NCBI GenBank assembly: GCA_052327205.1 | Contig: CM126219.1 | Location: 64,852,001 to 64,916,000 of the forward strand | Source: Somniosus microcephalus | Taxonomy: Eukaryota | Length of the DNA: 64,000 nt | Direction: 5' to 3' | Part shown: piece by piece, positions 5,226 to 53,802 of the stretch | Position numbering within the stretch: position 1 is the first letter of the stretch | Layout of the letters: each line of letters opens with the position of its first letter | Notes under the pieces: model-generated | The model's database searches: none | What the model was told of the DNA's origin: nothing | The model's input: only the letters and a program-made list of their open reading frames with translations | Program-made: the position numbers and the translations under genes

Positions 5226-6258
5226 TTCAGACACAGGTTGCAGACCTGTGTGAGTGTGCTTGGCTTGGCCTGGCCTGGCCAGCCCCAGAAGACGAATAGC
5301 TCGCCCACGCTCGCTGTCTGTGACCATCCATGAAGAACAGCGCCTTGGCGGAGGTCATGCAATGTGGGTAGAGCTGCACCGTTGAGAGAGAAGGGCGAGA
5401 AAAGTAGAAAATCAAAAAAATGTTTTAAAAGGACAGCAAACGGAATTGAACCGAATTGCCACACGATCGAAAATGTTCCAACAGGGAAGATTGCACAGAA
5501 GTTTTAATTGCAAATATTCCCCAGTTTACACCAGGCTTTCACTTAAAAAAATACACAAAGCCCCAAGCCACATCAGGGAACTGAGCTTACTGTCAAATGT
5601 TAGCAATCTATCTGCTGAGGATCAGCATTTCAAACAGTGTAGCTCAGCAGACGAGACAGTGATCGATCTCCTCCCACGCAGAATGAGTGAAAACAGCCCT
5701 CACGTAATTCCCAACGTGGGGCCCACATCCAACAACCCACGGCACTTTCCTTTGTTTAAGAAAAAAATGCAGGAATAGAAGTTTTCACTTGCCAAGTATC
5801 TTGCTGAGAGTGACTTTCCACCTCCCCACCCCCACCCCATGATAATGCCAACCTCCTCATTTCTATCTCTCAATCCATCAGTCGATTTGTACTCTTTCTG
5901 CTGCTTTGTGACCCTTCTACTGTCCCTTACTGACCAGGCCTGTACCAAAGGGATGGGAGAATTTAAATGGATCTTTTGAGGAAATCTTAAAGTAGGAGTG
6001 AATGAAAGATAACATTTAATTGGTGTAAGTTAAAACTAAACGTCTGAAGTCTCGCTCACCAATGGCGAGCAGTTTTTAATGGGGTCGCTACTATCAGGCA
6101 CAGTGGGTGCAAGATTTGTAAGAAGATGAACGCACAATGATGCGATGTCATCTTATCTGCTGTGTTCTGAAGATTCGTCTGCTTTCAAACTCTAAAAATA
6201 GAACAAGTGTTTCTGTTGCCATAGACACAACTTCAGCTACTGAGCCAAAGGTGGATAT

Positions 6259-9200
6259 TGACCCCAACCACAGGTCACCTAACACAGCGGACACTGACCC
6301 CATCCAATGGTCACCTAACACAGCGGATACTGACCCCAACCAAAGGTCACCTAACACAGCGGATACTGACCCCAACCAAAGGTCACCTAACACAGCGGAC
6401 ACTGACCCCAACCAAAGGTCATCTAACACAGCGGGCACTGACCCCAACCAAAGGTCACCTAACACAGCGGACACTGACCCCAACCAATGGTCACCTAACA
6501 CAGTAGACACTGACCCCAACCACAGGTCACCTAACACAGCGGACACTGACCCCAACCAATGGTCACCTAACACAGTGGACACTGACCCCAACCACAGGTC
6601 ACCTAACACAGCGGACACTGACCCCCAACCAAAGGTCACCTAACACAGCGGACACTGACCCCAACCAAAGGTCACCTAACACAACGGACACTGACCCCAA
6701 CCAAAGGTCACCTAACACAGCGGACACTAACCCCAACCACAGGTCACCTAACACAGCGGACACTGACCCCAACCAATGGTCACCTAACACAGCGGACACT
6801 AACCCCAACCACAGGTCAACTAACACTGCGGACACTGACCCCAACCAAAGGTCACCTAACACAGCGGAAACTGACCCCAACCAAAGGTCACCTAACACAG
6901 TGGACACTGACCCCAACCACAGGTCACCTAACACAGCAGACACTGACCCCATCCAATGGTCACCTAACACAGCGGACACTGACCCCATCCAATGGTCACC
7001 TAACACAGCGGACACTGACCCCAACCACAGGTCACCTAACACTGCGGACACTGACCCCAACCAAAGGTCACCTAACACAGCGGAAACTGACCCCAACCAA
7101 AGGTCACCTAACACAGTGGACACTGACCCAAACCACAGGTCACCTAACACAGCAGACACTGACTCCATCCAATGGTCACCTAACACAGCGGACACTGACC
7201 CCAACCACAGGTCACCTAACACAGCAGACACTGACCCCAACCAATGGTCACCTAACACAGCAGACACTGACCCCAACCAATGGTCACCTAACACAGTGGA
7301 CACTGACCCCAACCACAGGTCACCTAACACAGTGGACACTGACCCCAACCAATGGTCACCTAACACAGCAGACACTGACCCCAACCACAGGTCACCTAAC
7401 ACAGCGGACACTGACCCCAACCAATGGTCACCTAACACAGCGGACACTGACCCCAACCAATGGTCACCTAACACAGCGGACACTGACCCCAACCAATGGT
7501 CACCTAACACAGCGGAAATTGACACCAACCAAAGGTCACCTAACACAGCGGACACTGACCCCATCCAATGGTCACCTAACACAGCGGACACTGACCCCAT
7601 CCAATGGTCACCTAACACAGCGGACACTGACCCCATCCAATGGTCGCCTAACACGGCGGACACTGACCCCATCCAATGGTCACCTAACATGGTGGACACT
7701 GACCCCAACCCAAGGTCACCTAACACAGCAGACACTGACTCCATCCAATGGTCACCTAACACAGCGGACACTGACCCCAACCAATGGTCACCTAACACAG
7801 CGGACACTGACCCCAACCAAAGGTCACCTAACACAGCGGACACTGACCCCATCCAATGGTCACCTAACACTGCGGACACTGACCCCAACCAATGGTCACC
7901 TAACACAGCGGACACTGACCCCAACCAATGGTCACCTAACACAGCGGACACTGACCCCAACCAAAGGTCACCTAACACAGCGGACACTGACCCCATCCAA
8001 TGGTCACCTAACACAGCGGACACTGACCCCATCCAATGGTCGCCTAACACGGCGGACACTGACCCCAACCAAAGGTCACCTAACACAGCGGACACTGACC
8101 CCTTCCAATGGTCACCTAACACAGCGGACACTGACCCCAACCACAGGTCACCTAACACAGCAGACACTGACCCCAACCAAAGGTCACCTAACACAGTGGA
8201 CACTGACCCCAACCACAGGTCACCTAACACAGCGGACACTGACCCCAACCACAGGTCACCTAACACAGCGGACACTGACCCCAGCCAATGGTCACCTAAC
8301 ACAGCGGACACTGACCCCAACCAAAGGTCACCTAACACAGCGGACACTGACCCCAACCAAAGGTCACCTAACACAGCGGACACTGACCCCAACCAAAGGT
8401 CACCTAACACAGCGGACACTGACCCCAACCAATGGTCACCTAACACAGCAGACACTGACCCCAACCAATGGTCACCTAACAGAGCGGACACTGACCCCAA
8501 CCACAGGTCACCTAACACAGCAGACACTGACCCCATCCAATAGTCACCTAACACAGCAGACACTGACCCCAACCAATGGTCACCTAACACAGCGGACACT
8601 GACCCCATCCAATGGTCACCTAACACAGCAGGCACTGACCCCAACCAAAGGTCACCTAACAGAGCGGACACTGACCCCAACCAATGGTCACCTAACAGAG
8701 CAGACACTGACCCCAACCACAGGTCACCTAACAGAGCGGACACTGACCCCATCCAATGGTCACCTAACACAGCGGATACTGACCCCAACCAAAGGTCACC
8801 TAACACAGCGGATACTGACCCCAACCAAAGGTCACCTAACACAGCGGGCACTGACCCCAACCAAAGGTCACCTAACACAGCGGACACTGACCCCCAACCA
8901 AAGGTCACCTAACACAGCGGACACTGACCCCAACCAAAGGTCACCTAACACAGCGGACACTGACCCCAACCAATGGTCACCTAACACAGTAGACACTGAC
9001 CCCAACCACAGGTCACCTAACACAGCGGACACTGACCCCAACCAATGGTCACCTAACACAGTGGACACTGACCCCAACCACAGGTCACCTAACACAGCGG
9101 ACACTGACCCCCAACCAAATGTCACCTAACACAGCGGACACTGACCCCAACCAAAGGTCACCTAACACAGCGGACACTGACCCCAACCAAAGGTCACCTA

Positions 9201-12200
9201 ACACAACGGACACTGACCCCAACCAAAGGTCACCTAACACAGCGGACACTAACCCCAACCACAGGTCACCTAACACAGCGGACACTGACCCCAACCAATG
9301 GTCACCTAACACAGCGGACACTAACCCCAACCACAGGTCAACTAACACTGCGGACACTGACCCCAACCAAAGGTCACCTAACACAGCGGAAACTGACCCC
9401 AACCAAAGGTCACCTAACACAGTGGACACTGACCCCAACCACAGGTCACCTAACACAGCAGACACTGACCCCATCCAATGGTCACCTAACACAGCGGACA
9501 CTGACCCCATCCAATGGTCACCTAACACAGCGGACACTGACCCCAACCACAGGTCACCTAACACTGCGGACACTGACCCCAACCAAAGGTCACCTAACAC
9601 AGCGGAAACTGACCCCAACCAAAGGTCACCTAACACAGTGGACACTGACCCCAACCACAGGTCACCTAACACAGCAGACACTGACTCCATCCAATGGTCA
9701 CCTAACACAGCGGACACTGACCCCAACCACAGGTCACCTAACACAGCAGACACTGACCCCAACCAATGGTCACCTAACACAGCAGACACTGACCCCAACC
9801 AATGGTCACCTAACACAGTGGACACTGACCCCAACCACAGGTCACCTAACACAGCGGACACTGACCCCAACCAATGGTCACCTAACACAGCAGACACTGA
9901 CCCCAACCACAGGTCACCTAACACAGCGGACACTGACCCCAACCAATGGTCACCTAACACAGCGGACACTGACCCCAACCAATGGTCACCTAACACAGCG
10001 GACACTGACCCCAACCAATGGTCACCTAACACAGCGGAAATTGACCCCAACCAAAGGTCACCTAACACAGCGGACACTGACCCCATCCAATGGTCACCTA
10101 ACACTGCGGACACTGACCCCAACCAAAGGTCACCTAACACAGCGGACACTGACCCCATCCAATGGTCACCTAACACAGCGGACACTGACCCCATCCAATG
10201 GTCGCCTAACACGGCGGACACTGACCCCATCCAATGGTCACCTAACATGGTGGACACTGACCCCAACCCAAGGTCACCTAACACAGCAGACACTGACTCC
10301 ATCCAATGGTCACCTAACACAGCGGACACTGACCCCAACCAATGGTCACCTAACACAGCGGACACTGACCCCATCCAATGGTCACCTAACACAGCGGACA
10401 CTGACCCCATCCAATGGTCGCCTAACACGGCGGACACTGACCCCAACCAAAGGTCACCTAACACAGCGGACACTGACCCCTTCCAATGGTCACCTAACAC
10501 AGCGGACACTGACCCCAACCACAGGTCACCTAACACAGCAGACACTGACCCCAACCAAAGGTCACCTAACACAGCAGACACTGACCCCAACCACAGGTCA
10601 CCTAACACAGCGGACACTGACCCCAGCCAATGGTCACCTAACACAGCGGACACTGACCCCAACCAAAGGTCACCTAACACAGCGGACACTGACCCCAACC
10701 AAAGGTCACCTAACACAGCGGACACTGACCCCAACCAAAGGTCACCTAACACAGCGGACACTGACCCCAACCAATGGTCACCTAACACAGCAGACACTGA
10801 CCCCAACCAATGGTCACCTAACAGAGCGGACACTGACCCCAACCACAGGTCACCTAACACAGCAGACACTGACCCCATCCAATAGTCACCTAACACAGCA
10901 GACACTGACCCCAACCAATGGTCACCTAACACAGCGGACACTGACCCCATCCAATGGTCACCTAACACAGCAGGCACTGACCCCAACCAAAGGTCACCTA
11001 ACAGAGCGGACACTGACCCCAACCAATGGTCACCTAACAGAGCAGACACTGACCCCAACCACAGGTCACCTAACAGAGCAGACACTGACCCCAACCAATG
11101 GTCACCTAACACAGCAGACACTGACCCCATCCAATGGTCACCTAACACAGCGGACACTGACCCCATCCAATGGTCACCTAACACAGCGGACACTGACCCC
11201 AACCAAAGGTCACCTAACACAGCGGACACTGACCCCAACCACAGGTCACCGAACACAGTGGACACTGACCCCAACCAAAGGTCACCTAACACAGCGGACA
11301 CTGACCCCAACCAATGGTCACCTAACACAGTGGACACTGACCCCAACCAATGGTCACCTAACACAGCGGACACTGACCCCAACCAAAGGTCACCTAACAC
11401 AGCGGTCACTGACCCCAAACACAGGTCACCGAACACAGTGGACACTGACCCCAACCACAGGTCACCTAACACAGCAGACACTGACCCCAACCAATGGTCA
11501 CCTAACACAGCGGACACTGACCCCAACCAATGGTCACCTAACACTGCGGACACTGACCCCAACCACAGGTCACCTAACACAGCGGACACTGACCCCAACC
11601 AAAGGTCACCTAACACAGCGGACACTGACCCCAACCAATGGTCACCTAACACAGCGGACACTGACCCCAACCAATGGTCACCTAACACAGCAGACACTGA
11701 CCCCAACCAAAGGTCACCTAACACAGCGGACACTGACCCCAACCAATGGTCACCTAACACAGCGGACACTGACCCCAACCAATGATTACCTAACACAGCG
11801 GACACTGACCCCAACCAAAGGTCACCTAACACAGCGGACACTGACCCCAACCAAAGGTCACCTAACACAGCGGACACTGACCCCAACCAATGGTCACCTA
11901 ACACAGTGGACACTGACTCCAACCAAAGGTCACCTAACACAGCGGACACTGACCCCAACCAAAGGTCACCTAACACAGTGGACACTGACCCCAACCAAAG
12001 GTCACCTAACACAGTGGACACTGACCCCAACCAATGGTCACCTAACACAGCAGACACTGACCCCAACCACAGGTCACCTAACACAGTGGACACTGACCCC
12101 AACCACAGGTCACCTAACACAGCGGACACTGACCCCAACCACAGGTCACCTAACACAGCGGATACTGACCCCAACCAAAGGTCACCTAACACAGCGGACA

Positions 12201-20067: not shown

Positions 20068-20202
20068 CCTGGCTGTCCCTGGATAGGGGGCTTGTGGGAT
20101 TGGTGTTATCCCCAACTTGTTCTGCATTGCAGTCGCTGAAACGATCTGTGCTGAAGACATGGCGGCCATATTCTGCAGGGCTTTGTCTTTTGAGGCTTGA
20201 TC
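20068..20202 (-). CDS. TEAD3: TEAD exon: DQASKDKALQNMAAMSSAQIVSATAMQNKLGITPIPQAPYPGTAR
   Basis: 135 nt, phase 0-0. Acceptor atttcaaAG, donor GTaaga. Carries the conserved KDKALQxMAxMSSAQIVSA motif. Confidence 0.96.
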
Positions 20203-30103: not shown

Positions 30104-30115
30104 CACATTCATTGC
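30104..30115 (-). CDS. TEAD3: TEAD 12-nt microexon AMNV
   Basis: gtgcttttcttgaatccAG|GCAATGAATGTG|GTAAGT, phase 0-0. Position and sequence match the 4-aa insert of TEAD paralogues (AMNL in TEAD3, VTSM in TEAD1). Confidence 0.88.
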
Positions 30116-47000: not shown

Positions 47001-48401
47001 CCCTCTTTTCCCAAGTGAGATCTCTCTCCATTGTGAGCACCTGCTGTGATTTCTGCATCTATGGATCTTCTGGGGCAACACACTCTGTTCTCACAACACC
47101 CTCATGAAATTTTTTCTGAATTATCTTTCAGCTGGTTTAGTTTGAATGCTAAGATGATGTCCCCTTGGTCTAGGTTCCTCTACCAGAAGGAAGAGTTGTT
47201 CCTTGTCAACTTCTTTTTTCGTTATTTAAACACCTGAATTAGATCACCCCCCTTATCTCCCATGTAAATATCAAAAGTTTCACGAATTTGTCGTGAGGGA
47301 GAAGGGTCTCTCAGTTAATTCACTTGGCCATAGTATAAAGCAATGTAGTACGTATTCCTTGTACAACAGCTACAGTAAGCGGAGGTCAGACTCGTAGAAG
47401 ACTTCAAGGCAGCCCGTTTTTCAACAGAGAGGAGGGAAGACCTACTGCGGAGGAAGGAAGTGGAACTAGATTGCAAGACAGAATGGCACACGAGCGAGCC
47501 TGTGGAAGCCTGATGCACGGAGGGGAGGGGGGTGTTAGTTAATGAAGCACAGGAAGCGAGTTAGTTTGCGATTTCACTGCACACTGCCACAAAGCCAAAA
47601 TAATAAAACAAAGGCGTCCCATAATTAGCCAGAGAGAAGCTGAGGCCTGAAGCTGAAGTATAGCACAGTTCTGATAACACAACGCAGGATGTGCAAGGAA
47701 AGGATGACTGATGCACAGCGCTTGTATAGAGTCTGCACTGTCGCCTTTCAGCCAGGGTCCAGCACAGGGGCTCTTGGCCAGTTGCTGCGAGATTATCACC
47801 AGTTCGTTGAACAGGGAGCGCGGGAGGGCGATCACAATATTTGTTTTGCTCAACTTGGCGAGAAAGGCATTGGCCCAGCTCGCTGCTGCGGGTTTAGTGT
47901 TTAACTCCAGTGCTAACTTTCCTGACTGCGACCAGGGCATTAGTTTCGAACGGGGAGTCGAGTTATGGGGGCATTGTTGTCAACTCCTTCTTGAATATAC
48001 ATGCTCTTTTGCACAAGGGGAGGGGGAGGAGGGCAGGAAGAGTTTCCAACACTGGCAGCGAGATATCCTGCAAGAAGCCCAGGTCCCAACAGATCTTCAG
48101 AGCGACCTACCCAGTTAGTTCTGGAATATCCCACATGCCACAAATTGGTAGTTCAGAGGGCTAATTTTTTTTATTGGTTGCCGTAGCAACATCAGTTTAT
48201 GGATGTGTGTGTGTGTGTGTGAATCTTTAATGTTCAGAGAGCGCAATGCCACTCCTAGTCCCGGTGAACCCTCCCCAGTAGAAGCGTGCGGTAGGTTGAG
48301 GGGGATGTGGAGTCGGGGGATTGTGTTATCAGAACTCCCTGTACCCGCCGTTCAGCCTCAGCCAGCCGCCAACCACAAGGCCAAAGCAGAGAAGCGCATA
48401 C

Positions 48402-48464
48402 CTTCAGCTTGGACTGAATCTCACGAGCTTTCCTTCGGGCAAGAACCTGCATATGACTAGACAC
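48402..48464 (-). CDS. TEAD3: TEAD alternative exon B: VSSHMQVLARRKAREIQSKLK
   Basis: 63 nt, phase 0-0. Long pyrimidine tract plus ctgcAG, donor GTatgc. Close to the TEAD2/TEAD4-type RRK(S/A)REIQ(S/A)KLK. Confidence 0.93.
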
Positions 48465-48549
48465 CTGCAGGAAAGAGCAAAGGGGAAGAAAAGAAGAGCC
48501 TGTAACCATGGAGATGAATGTCCCCCGGATTCATGCCGGCTGCACATAC

Positions 48550-48612
48550 CTTGATGCTTGCTTGGTACTCTCGCACTTTCTTCCTGGCTAACACCTGTAT
48601 GTGACTAGACAC
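48550..48612 (-). CDS. TEAD3: TEAD alternative exon A: VSSHIQVLARKKVREYQASIK
   Basis: 63 nt, phase 0-0. Acceptor gacatAG, donor GTatgt. Close to the TEAD3-type VSSHIQVLARKKVREYQVGIK. Confidence 0.93.
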
Positions 48613-53737: not shown

Positions 53738-53802
53738 CTGCTTCCTTGTGCGTGTTTTGCCAGTCCGTAGCTTGATGTATCTCGCTATCAACTCATTGCG
53801 GC
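53738..53802 (-). CDS. TEAD3: TEAD exon, TEA DNA-binding domain: (G)RNELIARYIKLRTGKTRTRKQ
   Basis: 65 nt, phase 1 to 0. Acceptor ttttttattccgacAG, donor GTaaag. The peptide is the invariant TEA-domain segment. Confidence 0.97.

Follow-up and report, generated by a model that had tools for sequence, protein, structure and literature searches.

In chicken, two TEAD3 cDNAs, DTEF-1A and DTEF-1B, were reportedly described by Azakie et al. in 1996, with splicing that differs at the C-terminal end of the TEA domain. The closest catalogued system is the human TEAD3 gene, which Martinez Gomez et al. 2021 (PMC8373072) list in a supplementary table as event 210, a tandem-exon-duplication substitution between ENST00000338863 and ENST00000639578. 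Its 21-residue exons lie at chr6:35480312-35480374 (the orthologue of the exon called A below) and chr6:35480060-35480122 (the orthologue of exon B), its last common ancestor is given as Vertebrata, and flags place it in Lam et al. 2021 and Kondrashov and Koonin as well. The gene list of Lam et al. 2021 (PMC7954323) includes a TEAD3 identifier, and the accessible part of the main text names no TEAD. For mutually exclusive exon clusters, the available portion of Hatje et al. 2017 (PMC5740500) gives a steric criterion, a donor-to-branch distance of <50 nt, which applies to 57/629 human clusters; TEAD3 and TEAD1 are absent from 10 supplementary files of that study. Separation of splice isoforms after gene duplication is a category of Abascal et al. 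2015 (PMC4494069), from whose main text, in the part available, TEAD is absent.

The exon pair analysed here is already known: it is the cartilaginous-fish copy of the human TEAD3 pair, and the finding in itself adds one more species to a known and already dated pair. The initial annotation of this DNA had suspected that the arrangement might have been annotated before, correctly in view of human event 210. Its idea that a chondrichthyan copy would date the pair was overtaken, as the pair has already been dated to Vertebrata and lamprey gene models carry both exons. Searches that covered few subscription journals returned no paper on a TEAD1 exon pair, on the intronic element, joined A+B form or echinoderm pair described below, or on a functional comparison of the A and B forms, and nothing on the exon pair was found in the available parts of PMC5867882, the TOGA2 preprint and PMC4529898.

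The TEAD3 locus and its exon pair

We analysed a 64,000-nt stretch of the Somniosus microcephalus genome (the window, C18:64852001-64916000), in which positions are counted from the first base. The gene is TEAD3 (TEF-5), which encodes a transcription factor of growth control: exons for the TEA domain (PF01285) and the YAP-binding domain (PF17725) lie on the same strand of C18, a YAP-binding exon finds its best match among solved structures in TEF-5 (TEAD3; 110.7 bits vs 102.6 for TEF-1), and the shark and teleost database entries related to exon A carry the names TEF-5 or tead3b. The following features were located:

53738..53802, minus strand: upstream TEA-domain exon, 65 nt, ending ...KTRTRKQ, whose donor joins A or B
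48550..48612, minus strand: exon A, 63 nt, phase 0, peptide VSSHIQVLARKKVREYQASIK, AG/GT flanks
48465..48549, minus strand: A-B intron, 85 nt, which if retained shifts the frame into a stop
48532..48536, minus strand: GCATG, an RBFOX-type motif, at A-B intron positions 14-18
48465..48498, minus strand: polypyrimidine tract and AG of exon B, with 20/22 pyrimidines at -25 to -4
48402..48464, minus strand: exon B, 63 nt, phase 0, peptide VSSHMQVLARRKAREIQSKLK, AG/GT flanks
30104..30115, minus strand: 12-nt microexon AMNV; GCATG occurs twice downstream of it, at 38 and 48 nt
20068..20202, minus strand: next coding exon, 135 nt, starting DQASKDKALQ

Tandem-duplicated alternative exons that end TEA helix 3 and supply a basic, NLS-like stretch had been proposed here, and this was right. 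The two 63-nt, phase-0 exons with intact splice sites, 85 nt apart, have the coordinates and peptides claimed, 53738 is confirmed as the end of the upstream TEA exon, and the A-B intron holds both the GCATG and a pyrimidine tract, which spans roughly its last 34 nt. Exons A and B are alike at 42/63 nucleotides and 14/21 residues, and the seven residue differences fall at positions 5, 11, 13, 16, 18, 19 and 20. Both peptides match solved TEA domains (exon B vs 5GZB, E 1.2e-6). When the minus strand of the window and 30 kb of adjoining sequence was scanned in 21-residue windows, the two exons scored 99 and 98 and the next best window 32, so the pair is not a product of chance; no third copy was found in this profile scan. 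Decay of either exon was ruled out by the identity of both peptides throughout the chondrichthyan models. The Met that had been called unusual in exon B is real and lineage-wide, occurring at position 5 in 29/29 chondrichthyan TEAD3 exon B sequences among the matches listed, and in exon B of teleost and human TEAD3 the residue is Leu.

Microexon AMNV is present in some database TEAD3 models and absent from others, and its arrangement is that of the RBFOX2-regulated 12-nt exon 6 of human TEAD1, as described in the accessible part of PMC9410899. The sole first-half TEA exon found on C18 lies at 65462184-65462297 on the minus strand, and the next TEA exon follows ~556 kb downstream, which would imply a very long intron if both belong to the same gene. 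Over positions 6001-12000 of the window the two strands differ markedly in composition (GC skew about -0.4, AT skew about +0.5), and this region is probably a simple or tandem repeat.

Paralogues and the age of the duplication

At least three TEAD loci were found in the genome: TEAD3 on C18, a locus on C15 with TEAD1 as best match, and a third paralogue on C28. Whole-genome searches, in which counts are lower bounds, found no clear TEAD4 or fourth TEAD. The corresponding exons are:

C15:120114111-120114049 (A) and 120113944-120113882 (B), minus strand: TEAD1 exon pair, separated by a 104-nt intron
C28:43679521-43679459, minus strand: single B-type exon of the third paralogue

Between TEAD3 and TEAD1, the A exons agree at 51/63 nucleotides and the B exons at 58/63, against 42-45/63 for A-B comparisons. 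The TEAD1 exon A peptide is identical in 63/68 database copies, from sharks to primates, among the matches listed. In a tree built from 23 exon rows (9 of them different; 11 A, 12 B), A separated from B with support 95/98, and the A exons still grouped together (96/78) after lamprey was added. From the grouping of A with A and B with B across TEAD1, TEAD3 and lamprey, the duplication is shown at the sequence level to predate the TEAD1-TEAD3 split and would have arisen in early vertebrates. A recent lineage-specific duplication was ruled out by the TEAD1 matches, the exon trees and the lamprey pair. Gene conversion between paralogues as the cause of exon B conservation was thought unlikely, the two loci being on different contigs and three amino-acid differences having been kept.

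The third paralogue carries exon B only, both in this genome and in 27/28 database proteins, the remaining one being without the region. It forms its own clade in a tree containing no TEAD2 or TEAD4 rows, and solved-structure matches did not settle its name; its chimaera orthologue bears the older annotation TEF-4 (TEAD2), and it is probably TEAD2. Two further observations were made downstream of its B exon: a CCATGG-containing palindromic stretch ~40 nt away and a tandem repeat at about 43679250-43678680.

Exon B looks to be the older form, because B-type sequence occurs in the solved domains of human TEAD4 and TEAD1 and also in a single annelid exon. No paralogue with only exon A was seen among the three TEAD loci and the database models compared, and the pattern is a one-sided loss of A in the third paralogue, not a reciprocal partition. 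The exon phylogeny that the initial annotation had called for upheld an A/B split older than TEAD1 and TEAD3, lamprey models carried both exons, and no reciprocal loss was seen. Its suggestion that paralogues diverged by differential exon loss fails in this respect, since TEAD1 and TEAD3 keep both exons, the third paralogue has B only and none has A only. Nor is a toggle of TEAD3 between paralogue-type helices supported: B is its own second exon, matching human TEAD3 B at 19/21 residues and human TEAD4 equally at 19/21, and positions 1-4 and 6-10 are invariant between A and B (see below).

Two alternative versions of the exon, used singly or joined, were also seen in sea urchin and sea cucumber TEAD models (19 echinoderm proteins: first exon in 9, second in 7, both in 3). 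The first echinoderm exon is closer to vertebrate B than to A, and the 21-column tree gave no decision on orthology between echinoderm and vertebrate exons.

Exon choice and its proposed effect on the protein

Usage was assessed from predicted gene models, which are not abundances; the queries continued from exon A into a following Val, which favours A+B, and no more than 15 members of each cluster were listed. The TEAD3 set comprised 116 proteins, of which the 100 named ones were classed, 96 of them as TEAD3 (two query peptides and 14 unnamed ORFs were left out); the TEAD1 count covers seven clusters, one single-member cluster being left out. Among the matches listed, the TEAD3 models (n=96) comprised 38 with A+B, 34 with A, 18 with B (3 variant) and 6 with neither, several of the last merely truncated; the chondrichthyan subset (n=45, 17 species) comprised 17 with A+B, 14 with A, 12 with B and 2 with neither, with direct A+B models in 11/17 species. 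TEAD1 models (n=102) were distributed, again among the matches listed, as 39 A+B, 33 B, 18 A, 11 A with retained intron and B, and 1 with neither, and lamprey proteins (n=15) as 6 A, 4 B and 5 A+B; single-exon models made up 26/45 of chondrichthyan TEAD3 and 51/102 of TEAD1. TEAD1 A+B models occur in rays, bichirs, frogs, birds, rodents and primates. Models with a single exon are found in every set, and joined A+B forms are annotated too. Many TEAD1 models of teleosts, and one viper model, retain an in-frame A-B intron of 90 nt, which adds 30 residues between the two copies; this short intron is retained in 11/15 models of one teleost TEAD1 cluster among the matches listed.

Two intronic stretches are shared with TEAD1:

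48496..48512, minus strand: 17-nt element, identical in the TEAD1 intron, with the likely branch adenosine at 48503
48370..48401, minus strand: first 32 nt of the intron after exon B, 28/32 identical to TEAD1

The 17-nt element has exactly 2 exact matches in the 6.4-Gb genome, both in the A-B introns of TEAD3 and TEAD1. There is no adenosine at intron positions 50-83, so a branch point at an adenosine must lie within 49 nt of donor A. The best predicted branch adenosine is 47 nt (TEAD3) and 48 nt (TEAD1) from donor A in introns that differ by 19 nt, and the earlier expectation of a branch point within about 50 nt of the upstream donor is therefore probable, with the candidate at 47. The candidate branch motif, GTTAC, is imperfect, and the 17-nt element would act as the branch-point region. 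Of 92 database proteins, 75 show the element in translation, 69/75 at 45-51 nt, a spacing deduced from read-through peptides that are mostly redundant teleost TEAD1; the other 17/92 comprise 7 read-throughs in which exon A is TEAD3-type and the element is lacking within the first 30 codons, and 10 microexon forms (all among the matches listed). Given these 7 read-throughs and the human intron of 189 nt, the mechanism may not hold across TEAD3.

Other signals differ between the two exons. The exon A acceptor has 14/22 pyrimidines in TEAD3 and 12/22 in TEAD1, compared with 20/22 and 19/22 for exon B. Synonymous differences between TEAD3 and TEAD1 affect 2/18 codons of exon B, as against 94/166 in five constitutive stretches (Fisher p 0.0003); for exon A the figure is 7/19, which is not significant (p 0.14). 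No such constraint is seen in the single exon B of the third paralogue, at 12/21. Identity between the two paralogues over the first 32 intron bases is 28 after exon B vs 14 after a constitutive exon, and this stretch after exon B is likely splicing-regulatory. RBFOX control through the intronic GCATG was set aside because the motif is not conserved in the TEAD1 intron. An alternative TEAD1 exon 5, which may or may not belong to the A/B pair, is regulated by SRSF1 according to the accessible part of PMC9410899. The intron fold was no better than shuffles (z 0.11), and a comparison of the two DNA sequences gave no duplex for the 17-nt element shared by TEAD3 and TEAD1. In the predicted folds of both paralogues, the purine-rich part of A pairs with the pyrimidine tract of B, which we take as a composition effect and not as evidence. 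Exclusion is not enforced by frameshift and NMD: both exons are 63 nt and keep the frame, so NMD cannot remove A+B messages.

We consider it fairly probable that this orthologous TEAD3 pair is used mostly one exon at a time through a close putative branch point, with a likely leak of A+B, and that the choice tunes the basic tail. The donor-to-branch spacing of 47-48 nt would hinder A-to-B joining and would not abolish it; splicing factors would set the choice, with A having the weaker acceptor and B a constrained exon and downstream intron; and the outcome would be a partial steric block near threshold combined with factor-driven choice. Steric hindrance, as originally proposed, is partly supported in that the branch candidate lies 47-48 nt from donor A, below ~50, and its strictness is not supported: at the level of annotation, A+B appears in 17/45 chondrichthyan TEAD3, 39/102 TEAD1 and 5/15 lamprey models among the matches listed. 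The frequent A+B models (38/96 TEAD3, 39/102 TEAD1, among the matches listed) may even mean that the block is weak or irrelevant. A strict steric switch, with the A+B models as gene-prediction artefacts or trace noise, appears unlikely. It would fit the stretch free of adenosine at positions 50-83, a spacing conserved although tract length varies, and the retained-intron models (11/15 in one teleost TEAD1 cluster, among the matches listed), which suggest poor splicing; moreover, the queries scored A+B higher, and the accessible part of PMC7954323 places the human gene within a set barring co-inclusion in Ensembl transcripts. However, direct A+B models occur in 11/17 chondrichthyan species among the matches listed, in TEAD1 from rays to primates and in lamprey, and the spacing is just 2-3 nt below the criterion.

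The same A+B models could instead reflect two largely independent cassette exons, with A+B as a real and perhaps regulated third isoform and steric hindrance playing a minor part, which we regard as quite unlikely. A+B is the largest class in both the TEAD3 and TEAD1 sets (among the matches listed), although these class counts are query-biased; both exons are in frame, and in such a protein A would complete helix 3 and B would add a helical spacer with a second basic cluster. An AlphaFold2 model of the chimaera A+B protein is one continuous helix over 61-124 (mean pLDDT 58; blocks at 87 and 73 over the first part of A and 53-66 over B), in which A is predicted to complete helix 3 and B to extend the helix with low confidence. 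Independent cassettes would leave the fixed short donor-to-branch spacing unexplained, and forms with neither exon are rare, at 6/96 TEAD3 (several truncated) and 1/102 TEAD1 among the matches listed.

For the protein, the Pfam TEA match stops at residue 9 of the exon, with two positions of the model left over. The residues at positions 1-4 and 6-10 are the same throughout the 11 A and 12 B exons, only position 5 (I/M) differs before residue 11, and 6/7 A/B differences lie in the basic tail, where the TEA domain ends or beyond it. The Ser and Gln of helix 3 that we take to read bases lie among the A/B-invariant positions. A presumably lacks the kinase site of the TEAD1 RRKS stretch, as does chondrichthyan TEAD3 B because of its Ala. 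No residue-level list of DNA contacts for the TEA domain was found in the literature searched. Helix 3 is the TEA recognition helix (available parts of the review PMC7547805 and of PMC9410899), and the exon stretch can be aligned with the bipartite NLS tested in Scalloped, in which the C-terminal basic cluster matters most (PMC3121794, available part). A FOXP1-like switch, in which A and B confer different DNA-sequence preferences through the recognition helix, seems highly improbable. Helix 3 determines TEA specificity (PMC7547805, available part), A and B have stayed different from each other since early vertebrates, and position 5 does vary (I, M, L), among exon-tree rows only in TEAD3 B; yet the remaining positions up to 10, the presumed base-contacting Ser and Gln included, are invariant. 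Tuning is likelier than such a switch because 6/7 differences fall in the basic tail at or past the domain end. Fine tuning of this tail, involving the C-terminal cluster of the NLS, backbone contacts and helix extension, with the motif unchanged, would thus be likelier than a new DNA motif.

Significance and comparison with described systems

Tentatively, and with some doubt, we suggest that TEAD1 and TEAD3 share a splicing module older than their split, in which a branch-point element at the steric threshold would yield regulated A, B and A+B forms that differ in basic tail and NLS. If so, exon A of TEAD1 would be an alternative exon that is almost invariant between sharks and primates and has escaped cataloguing, and the echinoderm duplication of this exon would be a separate event, which would point to repeated selection for a tunable TEA tail. 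The shared 17-nt element offers a precise site at which to test how the choice between A and B is made.

The TEAD1 pair shares the architecture, 17-nt element and spacing of the TEAD3 pair, with A orthologous to A and B to B; it differs in belonging to another paralogue and in having a 104-nt intron without GCATG. Although the pair is present in TEAD1, a factor central to the Hippo pathway, this gene has 0 matches in the human tandem-exon catalogue table (PMC8373072). Like the steric clusters of Hatje et al., the TEAD3 pair has a short intron, in-frame homologous exons and a predicted branch point at 47 nt; unlike them, joined A+B models are common. In the splice isoform separation of Abascal et al., each paralogue keeps a different exon, which is not the case here. 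Chicken DTEF-1A and DTEF-1B, which reportedly differ at a similar place in the TEA domain, may correspond to exons A and B.

Among cartilaginous fishes, 17 species already have the pair in database gene models, and the TEAD3 (TEF-5) models of shark, ray and chimaera contain the same two peptides without any difference, in A-only, B-only and A+B forms. The pair here and human TEAD3 event 210 agree in gene, position, order, 63-nt length and phase, and in peptide, exon A being identical to human A at 19/21 residues and exon B to human B at 19/21. Human A has Val-Gly where shark A has Ala-Ser, human B has Leu and Ser where shark B has Met and Ala, and the human intron, by the catalogue coordinates, is 189 nt vs 85 nt here.
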